Shown in pieces: positions 3,815-32,000 of a DNA stretch of 32,000 bases. Source of the DNA: Promethearchaeum syntrophicum (GTDB taxonomy: Archaea; Asgardarchaeota; Lokiarchaeia; Sigyniarchaeales; Promethearchaeaceae); NCBI RefSeq assembly GCF_008000775.2, contig NZ_CP042905.2, forward strand, positions 2,370,001 through 2,402,000. The letters run 5' to 3'. Position 1 is the first letter of the stretch, and each line of letters begins with the position of its first letter. Made by a program: the position numbers and the translations under genes. Below the pieces are notes generated by a model. It ran no database searches. It was not told the DNA's origin and saw nothing but the letters and a program-made list of their open reading frames with translations.

Positions 3815-6043
3815 TTATGCAGGAATATTATATCCAAGATCAACAGTATAACTAGTTAATTTGGCATTTCGAGATACCATGCGTACTGCAATATAATAAG
3901 TTCCTGCAGTTGGGACATTAAACGAACAAGTTTCAGGATTTGTTCCAGCATTTCCTATTGCAACTGAGTCTGTATAATCAGCAGAATTGCATATATATAA
4001 ATCCAGATTATAATTATTGCTCCACGAAAGAATGGCATCAATCATACCAGGTTGTACATCAATAGCAAAATAGTCAACCTCAAATTTCAGAAGATCTCCT
4101 GTCAACGTTTCTTCAAAATAAACGACATCTCCAGAAACTTCATTATCTACAGTGATTGTTAGGCTATCTTCACCATAATTACCGGCTGCATCATATGCTC
4201 GTACAGTTATTACATGATCACCATTAGGTACAGATTTCGTATCCCAAGTCCATGCGTAAGGAGAAGAAGAATCGGTTGTCCAACTCCCCCCATCAATAGA
4301 GTATTGAGTATAACTCACCCCAATATTATCTGTTGCTGTGGCTTCAATAGAAATGAAATCACTAACAATTGCACCATTTATTGGAGACGTAATACTAACA
4401 ACTGGATCTACAGTATCTGATGGAGTACTTCCTTGTTCAATTGAGAAGGAATAATCAACTAATCCAACATCAGCACTGGAGATCATCAAAACATAACCGT
4501 TGTCAACAAATCCCGCTAAACCAAAGGGACTGGTTGTTGTTTCAGTGGCATCATCTAACGTCAATGTTTCTATTGCTGTATAAGTAGGAACATCGCTAAT
4601 GAGTTCAACAGCGATTAAAGTTACTAAGAAATCGGTTTCTGTGGTTCTTCTTCCACCGGCGGGTGCTCCATCATCTCCATTAAATGAAAACATTGGATCA
4701 TATTCTGATTGAATTTGATTGAATTTCACATAATCAGATCCATAGGACCCCAATTCATACACACCAGTAGGATCTCCTAAATAACTCGAAGTTTCACCGA
4801 AATCAGATCCATATACATCGGAAACAAATGCTTCGTTAATATCATAAATCCGAATTTTATCCGGTTCTAAATCATCGAGATTAAAAGTAGTATAATCATA
4901 TTTTCCCCCGCCAATTGTGTCTGTATGAATTAGATTTGCTATTCGCCAATCATGGTAAACATCATCAAAGGTTTCTGAATATCCAAAATATGTTAACGCT
5001 TGATTAATTCCGGTAATTCCAGGAACGCCATTTTGAACAAAATAACTCAAGAAAGCGGCTCCGCCATAATGATCGGAGAGATAAACAGCCCACATTAAAG
5101 CTGCTCCGTAATCTGCAAGAATATTAATTCCACCTTGATCTTCCCATACGGTTAATGAATTATCAGGAGTTGCAAGATACGCTTCAATATCACCCCAAGC
5201 TACCCCATATCCACAAAGAGGTTCTGCATACATAGAACACCCTTCATTCATAAAAGTATCATCATTAGAATTGTAATCGTCGTGGATTAAATGTTGATAT
5301 TCATGAGCAACTACTCCCTCGTAAAGATTGGGTCGTAGAGCAGTATCACCAATTCTATTTTCCCAATCCATGCAATCAATGGAAATAATATTGCGATCAA
5401 AAGCTTGTTCTAAGACTCCCCAATAAAAACCCACAATATAATAAGGATAGGTTTGGTCGTAGTAATTATCATCACGAATATTGGAAACAAGCATTACAGA
5501 ACGTCCAGTTTCTTCATAGTACGCATCTCCTTGTTGGGCTGAACTTCCATCATGGAAATCAGGTGTACCAAAGTAAGAAGTGTCGATGGGATATATATTA
5601 GTGTCAAATTCATCGATCATATAAGCAACTTGGTCATCAGTTATCACTGGCAAATCTCGATCATCTGGAAAGCTTAAATCGAGAGCTACCCAAATTTCAA
5701 TATTATTTCCAACACCTCGGAGTTCAAAGGGAACAGTAATTGTCCCTGTATTAGAATCATAGCTATACCAATCTACGATATCACCGTCTGCGTAATAGGT
5801 TAAAGGTTCAACAGCGGCAGAACTTGGCACTTCGGAAGAAGCTATAGTCCGATCAGGTGTTGAAACAGCAGGTAAATTTTCCATTGTTCGCGCTCGTATT
5901 TCTGGACCCATATCAATAGGTTCATATGCAGAATAGTCAAACTGTTTATTTTGATTTTTTTGCAATGCTACCCCGAATGTAAGGATACTTGAAAAAACTA
6001 TAACGAAAACTAATGAGAAAATTATAGATTTATTCTTTTTCAT
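3815..6043 (-). CDS. Secreted zinc metalloprotease (gluzincin-type HExxH...NEG; M30/M9-like) with Ig-like and pre-peptidase C-terminal (PPC)-like domains
   Basis: 742 aa with a signal-like N-terminus (MKKNKSIIFSLVFVIVFSSILTFGVALQ). VVAH247EYQH251 is followed 15 residues later by NE267G. The C-terminal part has PVVSITSPINGAIV...DHVITVRAYDAAGNYGEDSLTITV (Ig-like) and then DYFAIDVQPG...AGTYYIAVRMVS (PPC-like). The family number is uncertain. Confidence 0.85.
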   Translation of the reverse strand: MKKNKSIIFSLVFVIVFSSILTFGVALQKNQNKQFDYSAYEPIDMGPEIRARTMENLPAVSTPDRTIASSEVPSSAAVEPLTYYADGDIVDWYSYDSNTGTITVPFELRGVGNNIEIWVALDLSFPDDRDLPVITDDQVAYMIDEFDTNIYPIDTSYFGTPDFHDGSSAQQGDAYYEETGRSVMLVSNIRDDNYYDQTYPYYIVGFYWGVLEQAFDRNIISIDCMDWENRIGDTALRPNLYEGVVAHEYQHLIHDDYNSNDDTFMNEGCSMYAEPLCGYGVAWGDIEAYLATPDNSLTVWEDQGGINILADYGAALMWAVYLSDHYGGAAFLSYFVQNGVPGITGINQALTYFGYSETFDDVYHDWRIANLIHTDTIGGGKYDYTTFNLDDLEPDKIRIYDINEAFVSDVYGSDFGETSSYLGDPTGVYELGSYGSDYVKFNQIQSEYDPMFSFNGDDGAPAGGRRTTETDFLVTLIAVELISDVPTYTAIETLTLDDATETTTSPFGLAGFVDNGYVLMISSADVGLVDYSFSIEQGSTPSDTVDPVVSITSPINGAIVSDFISIEATATDNIGVSYTQYSIDGGSWTTDSSSPYAWTWDTKSVPNGDHVITVRAYDAAGNYGEDSLTITVDNEVSGDVVYFEETLTGDLLKFEVDYFAIDVQPGMIDAILSWSNNYNLDLYICNSADYTDSVAIGNAGTNPETCSFNVPTAGTYYIAVRMVSRNAKLTSYTVDLGYNIPA

Positions 6044-14448: not shown

Positions 14449-15417
14449 TTATTTTCGAGTTAGACCTGTCCAACTAACATTTTTTACACCAGTTGATTCG
14501 GCAATTTGGAGAAATATCTCCATTTCTTTGGAGGTAAATAATTCAAGATTCTCACAAGGGTAAGGTAGATCCATTCGATGATATTTATCCTTCGCTAAAT
14601 TATTAAATGCTAAGAGATCCCATCGGTCAATTTTGTTTTCCAATTTTTCAAAAATAAACCTTCCAATTTCATGAATATTCTCATTTGATGCAGTGAATTC
14701 AGGAATAATCGGTGTTCTTACCCACATTTTTTTATTTGTTCTTTCAATTTTATTCAAGATCCAAAGTGCATTTTCCAAAATAATTTCATTAGATTGTCCC
14801 GTAAATTCCTTATGTTTAGAAGGGTCCATCTCCTTAAGATCATACAAAATTAGATCAACATAAGGGATAATTTTTTCAAGATTTTTCTTTGAAACAAATC
14901 CACAAGTATCTAATGCGGTGTGAAATCCTTTTTCTTTACATTTTTGAAGAAATTTCGAAACAAATTCTGCTTGAAGGGCAGATTCTCCCCCAGAAACTGT
15001 AATTCCTCCGTCTTTTGAGTTTAAATAATATGCAGCATCCTTTTCTACAATTCTAAGTAAATCATCTAAAGAAATTTCTTTACCTAATTTTCTAAGAGCA
15101 GTAGTTGGACAATTTTCAACGCACAATCCACATTGTGAACATAATTGGCGATTAATACTTATCCCATCATCTTTCAATTGAATTGCGGTATCAGGGCATA
15201 TTTTAACACATGTTCCACATCCAATACACCGAATAGAAAACCATTGTATTGAAGGTTCTGGAAAAAAGGATTCTGGATTATGACACCAAGCACATTTCAA
15301 ATTGCATTTTTTAAAAAAAACTGTAGTACGTAAACCTGGGCCATCTTCAGTTGACATCCTTTGAATTTCAAAAATATTTCCAGAGATAGATTTTGCCATT
15401 TTTAGAATTCTCTCCAA
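14449..15417 (-). CDS. Glycyl-radical enzyme activating enzyme (radical SAM, with two extra ferredoxin-type clusters)
   Basis: It has C38NLKC42AWC45HNPE (CxxxCxxC), GPGLRTTVFF, and CIGCGTCVKICP plus CSQCGLCVENCP. It lies 25 nt after the GRE gene. The likelier start is the ATG at 15399 (MAKSISG..., GGAGA 11 nt upstream) rather than the TTG at 15417. Confidence 0.9.
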   Translation of the reverse strand: MERILKMAKSISGNIFEIQRMSTEDGPGLRTTVFFKKCNLKCAWCHNPESFFPEPSIQWFSIRCIGCGTCVKICPDTAIQLKDDGISINRQLCSQCGLCVENCPTTALRKLGKEISLDDLLRIVEKDAAYYLNSKDGGITVSGGESALQAEFVSKFLQKCKEKGFHTALDTCGFVSKKNLEKIIPYVDLILYDLKEMDPSKHKEFTGQSNEIILENALWILNKIERTNKKMWVRTPIIPEFTASNENIHEIGRFIFEKLENKIDRWDLLAFNNLAKDKYHRMDLPYPCENLELFTSKEMEIFLQIAESTGVKNVSWTGLTRK

Positions 15418-15442
15418 TCATTATCTATTAATAGTTTAATTT

Positions 15443-17959
15443 TTACATATTGTGCATTTCTCGTGCAATAATTTCATCTTGGAGTTCTTTTCCTATAGAT
15501 ACAAAATATGCATTATATCCCGTTATCCTAACCAATAGATTGTGGTATCCGTCGGGATTAACTTGAGCATCTTTAAGCATATTTGCATCTAATATGTTGA
15601 TTTGTAAAGCTGTGCCTCCGTTCTCTATATATCCCTTCAAATATGATTTAAATTTCTCTTTTAGTTCTGGATTACGTAGCAATGAAGGATTAAATGTCAA
15701 TGTATGGCTAGCGCCATTAGGTAAAAAGTTAATATAATCTCCATTTTCATCCTTACCTCCTAAAACGGTACCAACAGAATTCGTTACTGCAGTAGGTCCT
15801 TGAATATCTGCTCCGTTCGTTGGTGAAATCGCATTAGAAAGGAATTGTCCTCCTATTCTTCCATCTGGTGTTGCTGGTGTAAAACCTGCATCCTCTCCAG
15901 CCCAGTAATTCCATGATAACATTCCTGGTCTATAGGTAAAATCTGTAGGTGTTTTATATTTGAAGCATTCTTGAGACCATATTTCCATTACTTTTTGTGC
16001 AAGTTCATCTGCTTCATCATTATCATTTCCATATTTCGGAGCTCGATTTTTTATGAGTGAATGCATAATTTTCCATTCTTTTTTACCCTTGAAATCATTT
16101 TCCATAGCTTCTTTTAATTCAGCAATTGTGAATTTTTTCTCGTCATATACAAACTTCTTTATTGCGAGTAACGAATCGACTAGAGTCGCGAAACCAACCC
16201 CTTCAATCGTGATAAATCGAATTTCAGGACCCCCATTTCTGACATCCAAGCCTGAGTTGATACATCCCTTTACCATTGAGGATAAATATGGTGTTGGTAA
16301 CCATCTGGCACGGAATTCTTCAGAAATATTATACGTATCAACAGTATACTTAATTTGATATCTTATCTGCCTAACCCAAGCATTCCAAAATTCTTCCCAA
16401 GTTTTAAAATCTTCTGCTAATCCCGTTTTAAGACCCATAAGTATAGGTTTTTTCTCTTTTGGATGGAGCATTATTACATTTTGATTTTGATTTGCGCTTT
16501 TACCATTATTCAATGTCAACAATATACTCTTAACCAAGTTAGGATTGCAATTTACCGTTCCGCTGCGATCATTTCCTTGCATTGTATTTTCCAAACATCC
16601 AACACATGCATAATCCCAAGCTTTTTCTTTTGGAATTCCTTGCCTCATCATTCCCGCTATAGATCTCTCATCAAAATTTAGAATAAAAGGAGCACCTTGA
16701 GATTTCGTTATCATATTTACTATAATGTCTAGTAATTTATCTGGAGAATTTCTGTGTAAGCGAACATTTGGTTTAGGTTCAAGAATTGGACTCCATTCAT
16801 CAATTACCTCAAGAATGGTGTAAGTTAAATCGTTTGTAAGATCTTCTCCATTAGAACCACATCCAGATAAGGTCATAAGTTGTCCAAAACCTGCTGTGAT
16901 TCCTTGGTTTCCAATGCGCATTTGAGCATCATAGGCAGTATTACAGTGAAACCAAAAGGATCCAAGAATTTCTTTAGCAAAATTTTTAGTAATGTTCTTT
17001 TCATCGATTACATCTTTTTTATATAGATCCCATAAATGTTGATCAGTTCTTCCAAATGATAGCCCTGGTCCTGGATAACTTTCTTCTGCCATTACAAGCA
17101 TATGGATTAACCAAAGAGATTGAACACCTTGCCAAAATGTTTGAGCTGGCTCCCAAGGTACAATTTCAAGGTTATTTGCCATTTGCTCAAGTTCAAGTTT
17201 TCTAGTGTCGTCATTCACCTCAGCTGCCAACCTTCTACATTCTTCGGCATATTTTTGGGCTAATTTTCGTGGAATTTCTGAAGCTTGAATAATAGCTCTT
17301 ATTTCGTTGCCTATTGGGCTTTTTTTTTCTTTCAAACTAAGTTGATTATATCTTTCTTTAGCATCATTAAAAACCGATTTAAAACCATTATTAATTATAA
17401 AATCGTAATCCGGAATGATATGTCCAGCAGTTGCACCTACATTCCCGAAACCATGATTATGATATTTAAAAGTACTATGTCTGACGTTTAAATTTAGTTT
17501 ATCAAATATTTTTTGCTCTTTTTCATTTAAACATTTACTTAGTTGTGTATTGAATCGCCCCCCCGCTAAGAGTTCAGGTCCAATTATCTCTTGAGGAATT
17601 TTATTTAACATGACTTTTTCCAAAAATATTATTCGTCTCTCTGGGAGTGATTTAGACCAGAAATCTTTAGGCAATTCCACTTCTTCAGCCATTAATGCTA
17701 AAGAAGAACCGAAAATACCACGTGTTTTATTTCCAAGATAAAAATAAATTTCAGGAACAATATAATAATCAGTTTCTGCAAAGGGTCTATCATCTAAGAG
17801 TCCGGTTGTAAAAGGCATATATTCATTATTCCATTCACGCTTCACTCCTAAAAAGTAATAGTCTCTTAGCCATTTATTACGTGGAGATAAATCATGTGGT
17901 TCAGCAATTCGATATTTTTGCTGTTCACCTAACGAATCCTCTTTTTCTGTAGTTACCAT
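15443..17959 (-). CDS. Glycyl-radical enzyme, PFL2/dehydratase-lyase type (substrate unknown)
   Basis: 838 aa. The C-terminal fingerprint is LLVRITG814YNAYF. The single-Cys loop is ACVGC455LE457. It also has GHIIPDYDFIINNGF, SFGRTDQHLWDLY, and FTPATPDGRIGGQFLSNAISPTNGADIQGPTAVTNSV. The SD-like GAGG lies 5 nt before the ATG. Confidence 0.9.
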   Translation of the reverse strand: MVTTEKEDSLGEQQKYRIAEPHDLSPRNKWLRDYYFLGVKREWNNEYMPFTTGLLDDRPFAETDYYIVPEIYFYLGNKTRGIFGSSLALMAEEVELPKDFWSKSLPERRIIFLEKVMLNKIPQEIIGPELLAGGRFNTQLSKCLNEKEQKIFDKLNLNVRHSTFKYHNHGFGNVGATAGHIIPDYDFIINNGFKSVFNDAKERYNQLSLKEKKSPIGNEIRAIIQASEIPRKLAQKYAEECRRLAAEVNDDTRKLELEQMANNLEIVPWEPAQTFWQGVQSLWLIHMLVMAEESYPGPGLSFGRTDQHLWDLYKKDVIDEKNITKNFAKEILGSFWFHCNTAYDAQMRIGNQGITAGFGQLMTLSGCGSNGEDLTNDLTYTILEVIDEWSPILEPKPNVRLHRNSPDKLLDIIVNMITKSQGAPFILNFDERSIAGMMRQGIPKEKAWDYACVGCLENTMQGNDRSGTVNCNPNLVKSILLTLNNGKSANQNQNVIMLHPKEKKPILMGLKTGLAEDFKTWEEFWNAWVRQIRYQIKYTVDTYNISEEFRARWLPTPYLSSMVKGCINSGLDVRNGGPEIRFITIEGVGFATLVDSLLAIKKFVYDEKKFTIAELKEAMENDFKGKKEWKIMHSLIKNRAPKYGNDNDEADELAQKVMEIWSQECFKYKTPTDFTYRPGMLSWNYWAGEDAGFTPATPDGRIGGQFLSNAISPTNGADIQGPTAVTNSVGTVLGGKDENGDYINFLPNGASHTLTFNPSLLRNPELKEKFKSYLKGYIENGGTALQINILDANMLKDAQVNPDGYHNLLVRITGYNAYFVSIGKELQDEIIAREMHNM

Positions 17960-25126: not shown

Positions 25127-27199
25127 TCAGAATTCAATCGAAATCCAGTAAACTGGATGATCGGTTTGGGATTCTGGGCTCGAAATATAATGTGCTTCAT
25201 TAATTATAAACTCAGGAGAAACAAAAATATGGTCAATTCTCCTTGTTCGATTAACATCATTTTCATCGAAATGATCTGGGTATAGAGAGAGAAAAGAATC
25301 TACTAATAATGCAGTCGAAGCATTATAATAAGTTGAATTTTCTCTAGAATTAAAATCTCCTAGTGAAATAACATTACTAAGACCCTCAATTCGAGACATC
25401 AAAGTTTGGATATGGGTTAATTTGGCCTCAGCAGAACCATCAGGATGTGAATTAAACACATTAAAGATATTTTCACCTACTGTTATTTGGGCTTGAACTG
25501 TACCAATTTCATCTTCATCAGAATATGTGAAAATCGAGATTGCATTTGAAATGGGATACCTTGATAAAATGGCTGCACCATAAGTACCTGTTACTTTCTT
25601 AGGCCCATAATATGAATAGTAGTTAAGTTTATCTGCAAAAAATCTTACTACATCTGAGTTTCCCCCTCCTATTTTAGCAGAATCTGATTCTTGAAGTGCT
25701 ATTATGTCAGGGTTAATTTCTTGTATTAATCGTAATTGAGATTCATAGTTTTTATCTCCTGATTCATTAACTCCCATTTGAACATTGAATGTCATTATTT
25801 TTAAAGAATTAACACCTTGACCTGTTAAAGTTTCAGGGGTTGAGGTCGTAATAATCCCTCCTAAAATCGTTCCAATTAAGATAAAACATATGAAAATTGT
25901 AGCAGATAAATTTTTTTTAGGAAAACCTTGGAATTTTTTCAACTGAATTGAGCTTTTCTTAATCAATAAAGTAGAAATAAATAATCCAATCCCAATTAGA
26001 AGAAATGGAAGCCAAAAGAGATTTCTAAATACTAAACTAATTGCCCCAACATAACCCCAAATATTAGTAAATATTATGATAAATGCCATAATGATAATAA
26101 CAAATCCTCCGAGAGTAAATCCTAATGAAATTTGTCGTTTTAAAGGATTAATATTTATCAATTCACGAGTAAGCAGCATAAAATTAATAAAAATAATTGG
26201 AGATAATAAAAGCATTACATATAATGGTATTTGTTGGTACCAATATGGTGCTGCTACTATTATAGCGGGTGAACTTGGAGTTTCTGGGAATTTAATTGTA
26301 TGTACGAATATCGTAAGGACTAGACTTAGGGAGAAAAGGAAATTCCATAACCAAATCATCCAATTTTTTAATGATCCAAACCATTGGGGTTTAAATAGAG
26401 TAATTAATGCATAGATTGAAATCATTATCGTAAGAATGATAATAATTGCTAGATAGTTTCCTTGAGTCCATCGAGATATAACTGTAGGACCTTCAAATGC
26501 AAAATATATTAAAAGAAAAGTATTAATAATCCCAATTATCAATAGAAAAACTTTAATTCCTTTTTTAAAATTGCCGTTGGTATTCTTATTTATAGGAAGT
26601 TCATCGTCTACTTCTTTATTTTGATTTGTTTCATCTTGGTGATTAGATTCGTTTAATTTCTCAAGAGAAAGCAATGAAAATAATCCTATTATTGCTAAAA
26701 TTCCTCCAATTGATTGATACCAACTATACATTGAAATATCAATAGTATAATTAAGTGTCCTAAACAGTATTGACAATCCCGTCCCTATTGCTAAGCTTAA
26801 TCCATAATTTAACCCATTGGATTTTTTAGTGATTGAAGAACTAAAGAGCAAATAACTTGGAAAAAATATCATAAAAGCCCCTACACCGAACCCAGCTGTA
26901 ATGATTTTGCCTAAAGTAGCAACCAATGGTGTTATCAACCGGGCAACAATTAAAACAATGCCTGAAATTTTTATCAGCTTCATTGAATAATCTTTTTTTG
27001 TGAAGATTAGAAAAATCGAAGGTAATAAGAATAACAATCCTGCAGCCTTTTCATCAACTGAAGTATTAAGCAAATCAAGCATATATATTGCGGAAATGAG
27101 TTCAGTTATCATTTGTAGAAAAAACAGAAACAAAACACTTAAAAGAATCATTTCGATGTTGATTTTATCCAAAAATTTTTTTGATTGTTCCATGTTCAT
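25127..27199 (-). CDS. Polytopic membrane protein (about 12 TM) fused to a C-terminal endonuclease/exonuclease/phosphatase (EEP) domain
   Basis: 690 aa. The N-terminal ~450 residues are hydrophobic helices. The C-terminal EEP motifs are LKIMTFNVQMG, IIALQESD, GAAILSRYPI, VFNSHPD, LGDFNS and RIDHIFVS. Confidence 0.85.
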   Translation of the reverse strand: MNMEQSKKFLDKINIEMILLSVLFLFFLQMITELISAIYMLDLLNTSVDEKAAGLLFLLPSIFLIFTKKDYSMKLIKISGIVLIVARLITPLVATLGKIITAGFGVGAFMIFFPSYLLFSSSITKKSNGLNYGLSLAIGTGLSILFRTLNYTIDISMYSWYQSIGGILAIIGLFSLLSLEKLNESNHQDETNQNKEVDDELPINKNTNGNFKKGIKVFLLIIGIINTFLLIYFAFEGPTVISRWTQGNYLAIIIILTIMISIYALITLFKPQWFGSLKNWMIWLWNFLFSLSLVLTIFVHTIKFPETPSSPAIIVAAPYWYQQIPLYVMLLLSPIIFINFMLLTRELININPLKRQISLGFTLGGFVIIIMAFIIIFTNIWGYVGAISLVFRNLFWLPFLLIGIGLFISTLLIKKSSIQLKKFQGFPKKNLSATIFICFILIGTILGGIITTSTPETLTGQGVNSLKIMTFNVQMGVNESGDKNYESQLRLIQEINPDIIALQESDSAKIGGGNSDVVRFFADKLNYYSYYGPKKVTGTYGAAILSRYPISNAISIFTYSDEDEIGTVQAQITVGENIFNVFNSHPDGSAEAKLTHIQTLMSRIEGLSNVISLGDFNSRENSTYYNASTALLVDSFLSLYPDHFDENDVNRTRRIDHIFVSPEFIINEAHYISSPESQTDHPVYWISIEF

Positions 27200-27305
27200 G
27201 AAATCAACGTTGGATTTTAAAAATCTTTTACTATTTGTGATATAATTTTGAATTAATATTTGCTATAAATTAATAAAATAAGTGAAGATTCCCTAAATTA
27301 TAATA

Positions 27306-28532
27306 ATGAAAGTTGAACTATTACTTCCAGCTCAAAATAAAAAATCAATTATTGCAGTGAAAGAATATGCTAATGCAGTATATTTTGGAACAGAAGCCTT
27401 GAATATGCGAATCAATGCTGATAATTTCATGATAAAAGATCTCCCCGAAATTGTAGATCTATGTCATTCTTTAAATATAAAAGCATATCTCACTAGCAAC
27501 GTAATTATTTATGAAAATGAGATCGAATATTTAGAAAATCAATTAAATCTAGCTAAAGATGCTGGGATAGATGCAGTAATTGTCCATGATATGGCTGCGA
27601 TTGAAATTGCCAAAGAATTAAAATTACCCTTTCATATATCTACACAAGCCAGTGTATCCAATTCAAAAGCCGCTCAGTTTTTTGAACGACTAGGTGCGGA
27701 ACGTATTATTTTGGCGCGAGAATTATCTTTAATGAAAATTAAGGAAATCATTAAAAAATTAACAAAAACTCAAATTGAAACCTTTGTTCATGGAGCAATG
27801 TGCACAGCAATTTCTGGACGGTGCTATATTTCTGCTGAAGTACATAAAGATACTCAGTATTCTGCAAACCGTGGAAAATGTCTCCAACCTTGCAGGAATA
27901 AATGGACAATGGTTCATTCAAATGGAACAGAATTAGAATATGAAGATGGATTTTTTTTAAACTCAAAAGATTTATGCATGATTGAACATATTCCAGAATT
28001 GATTAATTCTGGTATCTCATCTTTGAAAATTGAAGGGAGAATGAGAGATCCGCATTATATTGAAACGGTAGGTCAGTGTTATCGGGAAGCGATTGATAGT
28101 TTTTATGAAGATACATATAATCATAGTAAGGTCAAAAAATGGTTAGAAAATCTAAATACTGTTTATAATAGGGGTTTTTCAACAGGCTTTTATTTTGATC
28201 GGCCAGGGGTTAACGAAATTTCACGCGATCAATCAGGAAACCTTTCAAAATATCGAAAAATTCAAGTTGGAAAGGTGATAACCTATTATCGAAATGTAAA
28301 AGCTGCAAAAATAAGCCTCCATCAAGGACAATTGCGAATTGGAGATGAGATTATTATTGAAGGGAGTAAGATGGGTAATTATATAAAACAAAAAATAAAA
28401 TCTATCCAAATAAAAACCAAAGCAGTGACGCAAACCCCAAAATTAAACCCGGGGACTTCAATTTTAATCAGTGTAGAAGTAGATTCTCCAGTAAAAAAAA
28501 ATGATTATGTTTATCAATATTTGCCAAAATAA
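27306..28532 (+). CDS. Peptidase U32-family protein (Fe-S type; possibly an RNA/quinone hydroxylase-like member)
   Basis: 408 aa. ETFVHGAMCTAISGRCYIS exactly fits the remembered U32 signature E-x-F-x2-G-[SA]-[LIVM]-C-x4-G-x-C-x-[LIVM]-S. Two further Cys follow in NRGKCLQPCR. Confidence 0.9.
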   Translation: MKVELLLPAQNKKSIIAVKEYANAVYFGTEALNMRINADNFMIKDLPEIVDLCHSLNIKAYLTSNVIIYENEIEYLENQLNLAKDAGIDAVIVHDMAAIEIAKELKLPFHISTQASVSNSKAAQFFERLGAERIILARELSLMKIKEIIKKLTKTQIETFVHGAMCTAISGRCYISAEVHKDTQYSANRGKCLQPCRNKWTMVHSNGTELEYEDGFFLNSKDLCMIEHIPELINSGISSLKIEGRMRDPHYIETVGQCYREAIDSFYEDTYNHSKVKKWLENLNTVYNRGFSTGFYFDRPGVNEISRDQSGNLSKYRKIQVGKVITYYRNVKAAKISLHQGQLRIGDEIIIEGSKMGNYIKQKIKSIQIKTKAVTQTPKLNPGTSILISVEVDSPVKKNDYVYQYLPK

Positions 28533-28699: not shown

Positions 28700-30214
28700 A
28701 TGTTATTTACAGAAATGGATATTAATCCTCAAATTATACAAGCCTTGGAAGAGAATCAAATTATGTCTCCTACCGAAATTCAGGAGAAAAGTATTCCTCA
28801 TGGGCTTTCAATGCAAAAATCCCATGTTATTGGCCAAGCCAAAACTGGTTCCGGAAAAACACTCGCTTTTGCTATTCCTATTATCGAAAAAATAAATCCA
28901 AACAATAGAAATATACAAGCACTAGTTATCGTTCCAACTCGAGAATTATGTAAACAAAATGCAGTAGTTTTTCGTTCTATTACGAAATACAAGAAAATAA
29001 AGATTGTTGAAGTGTATGGTGGAGCTTCAATACGTTCTCAAATTGAGCAAATTCAAAGTGGTGGACAAGTTATAATTGCTACCCCAGGACGGTTAAACGA
29101 TTTAATTAGACGACGAATAATTAAGTTTAAGAGTGTTAATTTTGTCGCTTTAGATGAAGCCGATCGAATGCTTGATATGGGATTTCTTCCAGATATTGAG
29201 TTTGTGTTATTAGACGCAATGAGAAATATATCTCCTCGCTTATTTCTTTTTTCAGCAACATTATTTGACGAAATCAAAAAAGTTATTTACAAATTTACTA
29301 AAAAAGATGTTATTCATGAAATTGACGTTAGTAAAGATTCCTTAACCGTAGATAATTGTGATCAATACGCATATTATGTGAAGAATAACAAATTTTGGAA
29401 TTTTATTAAAATTTTAAATGACGAGCGACCAGCTTTTTCACTCATTTTTACTAAAACTAAACGAAATGCAGAAAAACTCTGTAATAGATTGAATAAAGCG
29501 AATGAGCTGAATTTTAATCTTAAAGTAGGATTTATTAACGGAGATTTATCACAAGCAAAACGTGAAAAAACTGTCTCTATGTTCCGTAATAAACAACTAT
29601 CTTGTTTAGTTGCAACAAATGTCCTTGCTCGAGGATTAGATTTTCCTAAAGTCACTCATGTATTTAATTATGATATGCCGCGTGATCCTGAAGATTATGT
29701 CCATCGTATTGGTCGGACTGCGAGGGTAGGAGGAGTAGAGAGAAATGTTGCTAGTGGTAAAGCTATTTCTATTGTTTCTGACGATCAGCGAGTTTTAATG
29801 AAAAAAATTGAAAAGCTCCTCAATAATAATATTGAAAAAAGGACAATACCAAATCTTTCAAATATGGAATTTGTTCCAGAAAAATACGATACGACTTTAA
29901 AGAAAAATGTAAAGCAAAAACAAAAAAGTAATCAAGGAAACAAACGTCAATTCGATAGGAAAAAGAAAAATCACAAGAATATTAAGAAAAATAGTAGTAA
30001 ACCAGAAGTTATTATTAAAATTGTACCAGAAAAACTCTCAACTAAATCAAATTCTTCACAAAAACTAAAAACACGAAGTCATTATACATCAAGTAAAACT
30101 TCAAATAATCAATTTGATAAGAAAAGAAGAAATCCTAAATTTAATAATAAGAAAAAGAAAAAGAAACAATTTTATTCAAAGAATCGACAGAAGATATCAT
30201 CTTCTGCGAAATAA
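28700..30214 (+). CDS. DEAD-box ATP-dependent RNA helicase with a long Lys/Asn/Ser-rich C-terminal tail
   Basis: Motifs present: Q motif (PTEIQEKSIP), I (AKTGSGKT), Ia (PTRELC), II (DEAD in LDEADRMLD), III (SAT), V (VATNVLARGLDF), VI (HRIGRTAR). The tail covers residues about 375-504. Confidence 0.92.
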   Translation: MLFTEMDINPQIIQALEENQIMSPTEIQEKSIPHGLSMQKSHVIGQAKTGSGKTLAFAIPIIEKINPNNRNIQALVIVPTRELCKQNAVVFRSITKYKKIKIVEVYGGASIRSQIEQIQSGGQVIIATPGRLNDLIRRRIIKFKSVNFVALDEADRMLDMGFLPDIEFVLLDAMRNISPRLFLFSATLFDEIKKVIYKFTKKDVIHEIDVSKDSLTVDNCDQYAYYVKNNKFWNFIKILNDERPAFSLIFTKTKRNAEKLCNRLNKANELNFNLKVGFINGDLSQAKREKTVSMFRNKQLSCLVATNVLARGLDFPKVTHVFNYDMPRDPEDYVHRIGRTARVGGVERNVASGKAISIVSDDQRVLMKKIEKLLNNNIEKRTIPNLSNMEFVPEKYDTTLKKNVKQKQKSNQGNKRQFDRKKKNHKNIKKNSSKPEVIIKIVPEKLSTKSNSSQKLKTRSHYTSSKTSNNQFDKKRRNPKFNNKKKKKKQFYSKNRQKISSSAK

Positions 30215-30249: not shown

Positions 30250-32000
30250 TTAAGAAGATTGATCTCTTTTTCTTCTTTGCGAAACATAAAAGCGCGCTGC
30301 TTTATTTATATCATCATCATTTAAGCTTTTCTTGTTTAATCTGATTCTTAGTTGCTCAACAAATTTTCGACATAAAGTAATCGAAAGAGATTCGCCTAAA
30401 TTCCTGATTTCTTCCCCGAGTTTTTCCGCTTCAATTGAAATTGGAGTAATTTCCACTTTAGGTTGCAAAATGAAATCTCCTAACGGATTTTTCTCCACTT
30501 TACTTGAAACTGGCTTAATTTTTCTGATTTCCGCTTTGGTTTGAGCGCGTACACCTTTACTAATTAAGGGAGACCGTTCTAGCGTAAGTTTTTTCTCTCT
30601 TGTTTGACCAGATTTGTAATTTGATAAAGAACTTTCTAAAAATTTCTCTTTCATTTCAATCCGAGAAGAATCAGAGGTTCCATTCAATCTATCTATGTTA
30701 ATTGGTGCGATTTTATGTGTTTTTATTTCAAAATCTTTAATTGGCGCCCCAGGAGGCATTTCTTTAATTGAATTATCTTTCTTGGTTATCAAATCACTAA
30801 AAAATGGATTTTTTTGATCCAATTTAGAAAATGTGGGGTCATTTTTTCTTTTAATCGAATCAAGGTTAGAAACGGGCAATTTTTTAATCTTTGGGACCCC
30901 AATTTTATCTCCAGGTAATTGATTTACCCCTCTAAAATCTTTAAATTGGACTTTTTCAGGAGCTTTAAACATATCCTTTTCCAATTTTTTCTTATCTAAT
31001 TGTAATTGCAATTTTTCTTCTAATTCTTTAATTTTATTTTGAAATACTTCTAAATATGCAAATTCTTGATAAATTTCACAAATTCCTATCAATTCTCTTA
31101 GAAGTTCTATCCCTTCTGTATATTTTTCTTCTGCTACAAAATTATTCGCTTCTATAAGTTTTTTTCTAAATTCTTGGGGAAGGGATTCCTTTAAACCAAG
31201 TATTTTGGTAAAAATCATTGATAAATTTCCTAAAACATTTTGATCAATAAGATTTATATCAAAAATTTCTACATCCTTTAAATAAACATGCCTTTCCTTT
31301 AAAGCAGAAGAAGATACGAAATTTTGATTATCAGCATGGGTTAGTATAATCGCCCAATTACTATATTTTCCTTCTCTTCGCTTTAAATTGATGAAAAATT
31401 TGATTTTTTCATCATTAAAATTTGAACCATCAATAATAAAAAATATTACATCAGATCCTCTCGTAAAATTATTCCAAAGAGGGGAAAAATCATCTCTTGC
31501 TATGAAATCCCAGAGATCAAAGAAAATATTGCCCATCTTAATCTTGTAATAAAAAGCAAAATCCATAATTTTATGACCATGAGATTTATCTTCTTGATTC
31601 AATATATTTACAATCGTAGATTTACCAGATCCTACTGGTCCAATCATGGTTATTTTAGGATGTAGGTAATAATGAGTTTCTTTTATGAAAATCGTGAATT
31701 CCTCTTTTTCTGGGGAAATTTCTTTAATTTTCTTTGGGTCTGGGAAATTTTTAAGAAATAATTTTGAAGCTCTCTCCACTTCTTTGGCAATTAATTTAGG
31801 TCTATCAGCCATATCTGTTACAAATAAAAAGAAAACGCCATTAGCGTAAACGAAATGCGTTTGGAAATCAAGTAAAGATTTGTTAAGAATTTTTCCTTCA
31901 ACTGGATTCGTAATATAGGATAGAAGTCTCTTTTTTAGTACTATTTCCAAAGCTTCCTTATCAAAAGCTTTAGCGAAGAAATATTGGAATACAATTTCAT
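30250..32000 (-). CDS. Multidomain longin-like + Arf-like small GTPase protein with coiled-coil/TPR-like and basic C-terminal regions; N-terminus lies beyond the window
   Basis: The ORF-track start (TTG at 31950) is probably not the true start. The frame stays open to base 32000 (...EIVFQYFFAKAFDKEALEIVLKK...). The P-loop is GPVGSGKST (nt 31618-31641). The interswitch/switch II block FDLWDFIARDDFSPLWNNFTRGSDVIFFIIDGSN aligns to Arf. The G4-position motif is LTHAD. Confidence 0.8.
   Translation of the reverse strand, partial: EIVFQYFFAKAFDKEALEIVLKKRLLSYITNPVEGKILNKSLLDFQTHFVYANGVFFLFVTDMADRPKLIAKEVERASKLFLKNFPDPKKIKEISPEKEEFTIFIKETHYYLHPKITMIGPVGSGKSTIVNILNQEDKSHGHKIMDFAFYYKIKMGNIFFDLWDFIARDDFSPLWNNFTRGSDVIFFIIDGSNFNDEKIKFFINLKRREGKYSNWAIILTHADNQNFVSSSALKERHVYLKDVEIFDINLIDQNVLGNLSMIFTKILGLKESLPQEFRKKLIEANNFVAEEKYTEGIELLRELIGICEIYQEFAYLEVFQNKIKELEEKLQLQLDKKKLEKDMFKAPEKVQFKDFRGVNQLPGDKIGVPKIKKLPVSNLDSIKRKNDPTFSKLDQKNPFFSDLITKKDNSIKEMPPGAPIKDFEIKTHKIAPINIDRLNGTSDSSRIEMKEKFLESSLSNYKSGQTREKKLTLERSPLISKGVRAQTKAEIRKIKPVSSKVEKNPLGDFILQPKVEITPISIEAEKLGEEIRNLGESLSITLCRKFVEQLRIRLNKKSLNDDDINKAARFYVSQRRKRDQSS

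Follow-up and report, generated by a model that had tools for sequence, protein, structure and literature searches.

The 32,000-nucleotide stretch of the Promethearchaeum syntrophicum MK-D1 chromosome analyzed here (contig NZ_CP042905.2, positions 2,370,001 to 2,402,000 of the forward strand; hereafter 'the window') ends within a reverse-strand gene whose product, referred to below as the target, joins a longin domain to an Arf-like GTPase (G) domain. The target belongs to a conserved group of longin–Arf-like proteins in which the motifs of the GTPase switch appear to have been lost in steps, and its gene recurs beside three uncharacterized genes that we term A, B and C. The fusion itself is already published for Lokiarchaeia; two findings appear not to have been described before, namely the stepwise degeneration of the switch, conserved clade-wide, and a conserved cluster of four genes (the target plus A, B and C). 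On balance, we think it somewhat probable that the target is a pseudo-GTPase, a nucleotide-binding but non-switching scaffold that would have the A, B and C products as its likeliest partners.

The reading frame that encodes the target remains open from a stop codon at 30250-30252 up to base 32000 on the reverse strand. Its 582-residue translation is 100% identical to QEE16885.2/WP_162306730.1, a protein of 593 residues that is encoded on the 4.32-Mb P. syntrophicum chromosome and named 'ADP-ribosylation factor-like protein' by NCBI. A previous reading of this DNA, made from the sequence alone and blind to its source, had linked the protein's domains to Asgard archaea and placed its N-terminus beyond the window edge, upstream of a TTG codon; the identity of the full-length protein bears out both points. 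Only the 11 N-terminal residues (MLRQVFIYYDN) lie outside the window, with the start codon about 33 nt past base 32000, and the TTG at 31950 is rejected as a start, as the 593-residue protein extends upstream of it.

Sequence and structure searches agree that the G domain is Arf-like. The Pfam Arf profile (PF00025) matches the target at 35.3 bits against a cutoff of 22.3 bits (E 1e-8), a phmmer search of the PDB places Arl8A first (E 2.5e-6) with Arl8B, Arf1 and Arf6 also among the best matches, and a Foldseek search with the whole AlphaFold2 model returns Arl3, Arl1, Arf1, Arf6 and Arl8 (E about 3e-8; target-normalized TM-score, TMt, 0.64-0.75). The predicted local distance difference test score (pLDDT) of the domain is about 90. 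Pfam Roc also matches, at 31.7 bits over residues 113-235; NCBIfam ABC-transporter matches were discarded on the grounds that they cover the P-loop only, and weak AAA matches are confined to it as well. The target has no match to the Gtr1_RagA hidden Markov model, and its C-terminal part is helical or disordered, without a roadblock domain. Within this Arf-like scaffold the P-loop is canonical, whereas the G2 Thr, WDxGGQ and NKxD of a canonical Arf protein are replaced by D157, WDFIAR and THAD; the Walker-B Asp of G3 is retained, the DxxG Gly has become Ala and the catalytic Gln has become Arg. The sequence-only reading had already recognized the Arf-like core, the normal P-loop and the DFIAR and THAD replacements, and each of these points stands.

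To place these substitutions in a family context, we searched 1.84 billion cluster representatives with a profile, which returned 131 at E<=1e-30; the retrieved proteins were aligned and split into a canonical group (n=75) and a degenerate group (n=72, a few intermediates being counted here). Two features persist on both sides of this division: the P-loop signature GxxxxGK[ST] is present in 72/72 canonical and 64/69 degenerate sequences, and the Walker-B Asp in 74/75 and 69/72, respectively. The remaining motifs separate the groups sharply. The switch-I Thr occurs in all 75 canonical proteins as compared with 3 of 72 degenerate ones (where Asn is found 36 times and Asp 21 times), the DxxG Gly in 75/75 versus 9/72, and the catalytic Gln in 75/75 versus 2/72; NKxD, found in 73/75 canonical sequences, is kept by 30/72 degenerate ones. 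Substitutes for the Gly and the Gln vary widely across the degenerate group, as do those for G4 (THAD, THSD, THQD, THKN, SHSK, SHSN and others). The aberrant G3 of the target is thus conserved among its orthologues and not a one-off, while its THAD proves to be clade-specific. Loss of G2, of both the Gly and the Gln of G3, and of G4 gives the target the sequence pattern of a pseudo-GTPase, a loss that is shared clade-wide.

The order in which the motifs disappeared can be approximated from a neighbor-joining tree of the longin and G regions, a crude tree that carries no support values. In it the degenerate proteins form one clade with two subclades, of which the first keeps NKxD (WDFQLxD / NK[QRT]D) and the second, which includes the target, has [ST]Hxx; this form of G4 is restricted to the Promethearchaeum/Lokiarchaeum subclade of the target. 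Intermediates with WDF[TI]GEE, in which the Gly is kept and the Gln lost, lie near the base of the clade. These placements suggest that the degenerate G domains are a monophyletic clade of about 60-70 cluster representatives with a canonical sister clade, and G4 was probably lost after G2 and G3, because NKxD is still present in 30/72 of the subfamily. Pfam Arf scores step down in parallel, from 62-81 bits in canonical proteins to 44-52 in degenerate proteins with NKxD and 26-35 in the target's subclade. Some members have gone further and lost the P-loop Lys as well (P0036, P0058 and P0059; GPSPFDRQK, GGRTT, SGRTT); nucleotide binding would therefore be dispensable at least there, and these proteins are probably nucleotide-free. 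Four loci that carry the target's gene cluster (L015, L028, L029 and L051) come from metagenome-assembled genomes labeled Hodarchaeota, Thorarchaeota or Odinarchaeota, which may mean either that the family is not confined to Lokiarchaeia or that the contigs were misbinned.

The degenerate proteins nevertheless carry the marks of constraint. In an alignment of 27 sequences whose identities span 29-87%, residues F171, W174, D175, S183, W186, G192 and D194 are invariant, and this, with the 131 representatives at E<=1e-30, makes purifying selection evident; as judged from these sequences, selection keeps the fold although the domain is no longer a conventional switch.

Gene order provides a second line of evidence. 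Among 48 genome loci that encode members of the degenerate subfamily, B lies near the target gene in 44, A in 38 and C in 36; 30 loci have all three, and 45 have one or more of them. In 41 loci B lies on the opposite strand, upstream of the target, and for 39 of these the gap measures 131-370 bp; C adjoins B; in one lineage (L004/L012) target, B and C are co-directional with gaps of 14-24 bp. MK-D1 itself has the complete set just past base 32000 (the cluster is seen at L001:1-327, L057:2-3297, L058:6228-11796 and L008:6662-11998): 8 nt separate the stop codon of A from the target ATG, an alternative ATG overlaps that stop, and B (DSAG12_02717, found with a profile of B) and C follow on the opposite strand. 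B encodes a protein of about 317 residues with four invariant Cys, A one of about 340-490 residues with a weakly SpoVT/AbrB-like N-terminus (GGITIPKKIR), a Lys-rich linker and a helical domain, and C a protein with HEAT repeats and a long Glu/Lys-rich coiled coil. Sequence searches for B found no Pfam or PDB relative. An Adaptin_N assignment for C was rejected, resting on one weak match (20.5 bits against a 37-bit cutoff) in 1 of 15 members, and we regard C as a generic HEAT protein. At the two loci of canonical paralogues that were checked, A, B and C are not neighbors. This arrangement suggests a functional link between the target and A, B and C. Separately, a GMPPB-like NTP-transferase gene often comes next after the A/B/C cluster.

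In our view a pseudo-GTPase scaffold of the following kind explains these findings best. The G domain would have been disabled stepwise by loss of the switch-I Thr, of the Gly in DxxG that senses the gamma-phosphate and of the catalytic Gln, and, in the Promethearchaeum/Lokiarchaeum subclade, of the guanine-specificity motif NKxD as well. Binding of nucleotide and Mg2+ is probably retained because the P-loop and the Walker-B Asp are kept, but the gamma-phosphate would no longer be sensed or hydrolyzed in the usual way. The protein would then act as a non-switching scaffold, loaded with nucleotide or, in some members, free of it, and would hold its partners through the longin platform, a conserved alpha-2 surface (SPLWNNFxRGSD) and motifs in the tail; the products of A, B and C are the most plausible candidates for such partners, conceivably in a physical complex.

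Several observations weigh against this interpretation. Loss of the Gln by itself is compatible with activity, as HAS-GTPases and Rap illustrate; the backbone NH at the former Gly position of DxxG is still present; and coordination of Mg2+ or water could in principle pass to D/N157 and D180, which are conserved. As to the partners, synteny does not imply a physical complex, all sampled genomes come from one class-level lineage, in which the linkage may partly be inherited gene order, and searches of Pfam, NCBIfam and the PDB gave A and B no informative sequence relatives beyond the weak SpoVT/AbrB match of A.

The strongest rival, which we rate as a serious but clearly less probable explanation, is that the target is a working GTPase switch with non-canonical catalysis, the missing residues being supplied in trans (by a GTPase-activating protein or by A, B or C), through longin-mediated dimerization, or by the relocated D/N157 and D180. 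The conserved P-loop and Walker-B Asp are compatible with such a switch, as is the strong conservation of the alpha-2/switch-II flank; about half of the subfamily has NKxD, which implies continued binding of guanine nucleotides, and GTPases that work without the Gln, such as HAS-GTPases and Rap1, provide precedents. Longin-mediated homodimers have, moreover, been predicted for MK-D1 longin-GTPases in the work of Tran et al. 2024 (PMC10933270). What tells against a working switch is that three elements (switch-I Thr, DxxG Gly and Gln) are lost together, that highly variable residues now stand in for Gly and Gln, so that a newly fixed catalytic residue at those positions is unlikely, and that some members lack the P-loop Lys and the target's own subclade lacks NKxD.

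The pseudo-GTPase scaffold can also be extended to a more specific proposal, which is speculative and to which we assign only a small chance: an Asgard-specific stable complex of the longin–pseudo-GTPase with the HEAT-solenoid/coiled-coil, four-Cys and AbrB-like/helical proteins, in which a permanently 'on' or nucleotide-independent Arf-like module, joined to its longin platform, would organize an alpha-solenoid partner. If this were true, the set of solenoid, longin and Arf-like parts would recall adaptor/coat assemblies and AAGAB-type assembly chaperones, and the complex would become a candidate for a precursor or analogue of adaptor/coat machinery in prokaryotes.

Slightly more doubtful still is a change of nucleotide specificity in the THxD subclade, by which the protein would be a different NTPase or an NTP sensor acting on ATP, xanthosine triphosphate or another nucleotide. 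In its favor, NKxD is replaced by T-H-x-D, THKN or SHxx, Ras-like proteins are known to move towards xanthine nucleotides when the Asp of NKxD becomes Asn, and there are weak ABC and AAA matches; the last are limited to the P-loop, though, and the G4 substitutes are not conserved among themselves, a pattern that looks like relaxed constraint and not like a new pocket.

We regard it as very improbable that the target acts in co-translational targeting as an analogue of the SR-alpha(SRX)–SR-beta pair, or as its forerunner, in archaea, a parallel to which the sequence-only reading had drawn attention. At the level of folds the parallel holds, in that SRX from the complex of SR-alpha with SR-beta (1nrj_A) ranks fifth among Foldseek matches of the longin domain, and a few family members match Pfam SRPRB weakly (21-26 bits); nothing else supports a role as a receptor for the signal recognition particle (SRP). 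VAMP7 and AP sigma are better structural matches, the Arf score exceeds the SRPRB score in every member and the target has no SRPRB match, and the G domain is filed under ArfL and not in the ArfR clade that contains SR-beta; the target lacks a transmembrane anchor, a hydrophobic N-terminus and an NG domain, and SRP or translocon genes are absent from its neighborhood. Finally, a decaying paralogue without selected function, which the lost G motifs might suggest, as might the fully canonical paralogue WP_147664160.1 that the genome also encodes, is the least credible explanation and is effectively refuted by conservation, as is a pseudogene: the 593-residue frame is intact, orthologues at 29-87% identity share invariant residues, there are dozens of cluster representatives, and the tail motifs, the C-terminal domain and the synteny are conserved.

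The domains around the G domain were defined on a full-length AlphaFold2 model built on the 27-sequence alignment, in which pLDDT is about 90 across residues 1-350. In order, the protein comprises a longin domain, the G domain of Arf-like (ArfL) type, helices resembling a TPR, a linker that is predicted to be disordered and carries short conserved motifs, and a bundle of three helices at the C-terminus (Table 1). The longin domain comprises strands 2-9, 12-18, 49-53, 56-63 and 66-72 and helices 25-41, 78-95 and 107-122, and modeled alone it reaches a pLDDT of 93.7 and a predicted TM-score (pTM) of 0.85. Its topology, beta-beta-alpha-beta-beta-beta-alpha-alpha without the N-terminal helix of roadblock proteins, is that of a longin domain, and a roadblock fold was rejected on this basis. 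The top Foldseek match in the PDB is the longin domain of VAMP7 (2vx8; E 1.6e-4; query-normalized TM-score, TMq, 0.70), and AP-1/2/3 sigma, AP mu N-terminal domains, SRX and Ykt6 are also matched; the roadblock domains of Ragulator and Rag proteins are placed lower. A longin-like N-terminus, which the earlier reading had proposed from a residue pattern, is thereby confirmed on structural grounds. Sequence profiles agree below threshold: a profile search of the PDB with the N-terminal region yielded sub-threshold matches, mostly to longin-fold proteins and including AP sigma and VAMP7 (E 0.08-1), and Pfam gave the target no match above gathering thresholds to Longin (PF13774) or Clat_adaptor_s, one relative coming close to the former (E 3.3e-5; 23.8 bits against a 26.2-bit cutoff). 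No Arf-type amphipathic helix is found directly before the G domain in the model, where the 122-residue longin domain occupies its place.

The part that follows the G domain had been described from the sequence as a coiled-coil/TPR-like region with a long basic tail, a description that is partly right, as three parts can be told apart. The first, a three-helix region, is indeed TPR-like, consisting of a hairpin (ANxxVxxExYxxAIxxLxxL) and then a long helix, with a weak signature for a single TPR in a profile search of the PDB (E 0.002-0.05) and no family in Pfam or NCBIfam; a predicted disordered linker and a terminal bundle are the other two. Five conserved islands stand out in the linker (KAPEKxxF, NPFF, GAPIxDFEIKTHxIxPINI, GQTRxKKLTLERSPL and NPLxxF), and NPF-type motifs bind EH domains in eukaryotic endocytosis. 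The bundle (pLDDT about 80) is conserved in the family alignments and has no detectable relative in sequence searches of Pfam, NCBIfam or the PDB.

Table 1. Features of the longin–ArfL–X gene and protein, with window positions, strand and basis or remark
Coding sequence of the longin–ArfL–X protein	30250..32000	-	residues 12-593 and stop codon inside the window
Longin domain, residues 1-122 (12-122 in window)	31666..32000	-	AlphaFold2 and Foldseek
Arf-like (ArfL) G domain, residues 123-280	31192..31665	-	Pfam Arf, PDB sequence search, Foldseek
G1/P-loop G131-PVGSGK-S138, canonical	31618..31641	-	read from sequence
Switch-I position, D157 replacing the Mg2+-coordinating G2 Thr	31561..31563	-	alignments to Arl8 and the canonical sister clade
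Degenerate G3/switch II, D175-F-I-A178-R179 replacing DxxGQ	31495..31509	-	read from sequence
Degenerate G4, T231-H-A-D234 replacing NKxD	31330..31341	-	read from sequence
Three-helix region, residues 281-353	30973..31191	-	AlphaFold2 helices 286-300, 304-320, 324-353; pLDDT 81-91
Predicted disordered linker, residues 354-528 (~170 residues)	30448..30972	-	pLDDT <50
C-terminal three-helix bundle, residues 529-593, basic end QRRKR	30253..30447	-	AlphaFold2 helices 530-544, 551-565, 572-592

The closest known relatives of the target are the LG/LGX/LGR proteins of Lokiarchaeia, which share its architecture and include proteins of the same organism. Dey et al. 2016 (PMC4917890) cite Klinger et al. 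2016 for five longin domains of Lokiarchaeum that are joined to Arf-like GTPases. Tran et al. 2024 (Commun Biol 7:273; PMC10933270) modeled all 74 MK-D1 small GTPases, 26 of them combined with roadblock or longin domains, with WP_162306730.1 appearing as 'LGX' in the Supplementary Fig. 6b alignment of longin-containing paralogues. The novelty of the fusion implied by the sequence-only reading is accordingly withdrawn. Tran et al. also state that, as a rule, the small-GTPase genes of MK-D1 do not share operons with genes for roadblock, longin or TRAPPC3 proteins; the small-GTPase Results section and the Fig. 6b legend of that paper do not describe the missing motifs, a degenerate subfamily or the A/B/C cluster. 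Our literature searches found no paper that names the accession and none on archaeal pseudo-GTPases. In Table S3 of Vargová et al. 2024 the target is listed as 'ArfL', assigned by BLAST and not by tree, a route that the Methods describe for sequences left unassigned by tree-based annotation; the canonical paralogue WP_147664160.1 is listed as 'ArfL, tree'. ArfL is known from Asgard archaea only and is separate from ArfR, which is the true sister group of eukaryotic Arf/SR-beta (Vargová et al. 2024; Klinger 2016), and the literature thus files this G domain (by BLAST) outside the ArfR families in which the earlier reading had framed it. Our neighbor-joining tree, which lacks support values, agrees in putting the target clade beside or inside the canonical LGX clade, to which type WP_147664160.1 belongs.

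Comparison with that paralogue (of a P0030-like clade) isolates what has changed. Both proteins share the MLRQVF... longin N-terminus and the G-domain scaffold LWDF...FSxLWxNFxxGSD, which is followed in each by TPR-like helices and a long tail of low complexity, but WP_147664160.1 keeps G1-G4 (GFSGVGKT, PTITGD, DFAGQ and NKQD), and proteins of its type lack the conserved C-terminal three-helix bundle. [quoted passage not shown]

A longin or roadblock platform is likewise combined with an Arf- or Rag-like G domain in SRX–SR-beta, AP sigma/mu–Arf1, AAGAB–AP sigma and Ragulator–Rag, with the difference that in these eukaryotic pairs the folds reside on separate polypeptides, whereas in the target they are fused. 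The longin domain finds some of its best structural matches in the complexes AAGAB–sigma3 (9ddt) and SRX–SR-beta (1nrj). AAGAB, to judge from the title of its PDB entry, illustrates that a pseudo-GTPase can serve as a longin-binding assembly factor; it is not claimed as a homologue of the target. The likeness to SRX–SR-beta, AP sigma–Arf1 and AAGAB–sigma3 would lie in how the parts work and not in family membership.

The window has a G+C content of about 29-31% and contains several other genes of interest. A DEAD-box helicase gene at 28700-30214 on the forward strand converges with the target gene, the two stop codons lying 35 bp apart; its product has a C-terminal tail of about 120 residues rich in Lys, Ser and Asn, and the gene is not found at that position in a Lokiarchaeum-like locus (L002) or in L058. 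Farther downstream of the target, positions 25127-28532 hold a U32 peptidase gene and a gene whose multi-pass membrane product carries an exo/endo-phosphatase domain of the PGAP2IP type, a pair that is also downstream in the Lokiarchaeum-like contig (L002:8343-13460) and in a Promethearchaeum relative (L058:999-4504); another lineage (L004) has PIG-L and actin genes downstream instead. The U32/PGAP2IP-type order may simply have been inherited, or it may point to functions connected with membrane glycolipids. At 3815-6043, on the reverse strand, a 742-residue open reading frame with Big_7 and PPC (pre-peptidase C-terminal) domains occupies the sole stretch of raised G+C in the window (0.38 versus about 0.29) and may encode a surface protein of foreign origin. 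At 14449-17959, also on the reverse strand, a glycyl-radical enzyme gene (PFL-like plus Gly_radical, 838 residues) adjoins the gene for its radical-SAM activase (322 residues).

Small GTPases and longin/roadblock proteins of Asgard archaea are central to the debate on the origin of eukaryotic membrane traffic, yet almost none has a known partner or function. The published picture of longin–Arf-like fusions in Lokiarchaeia is unchanged by our analysis; what is added is that one published 'LGX' protein can be placed in a large conserved clade that seems to have given up the GTPase switch while keeping the fold and its surfaces, with the apparent order of motif loss traced and the clade tied to a fixed set of three uncharacterized neighbor genes. 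This association defines a candidate complex that can be tested in MK-D1 and Lokiarchaeum ossiferum, two Asgard archaea in culture, and the canonical and degenerate paralogues form a natural pair for asking what the switch is needed for.

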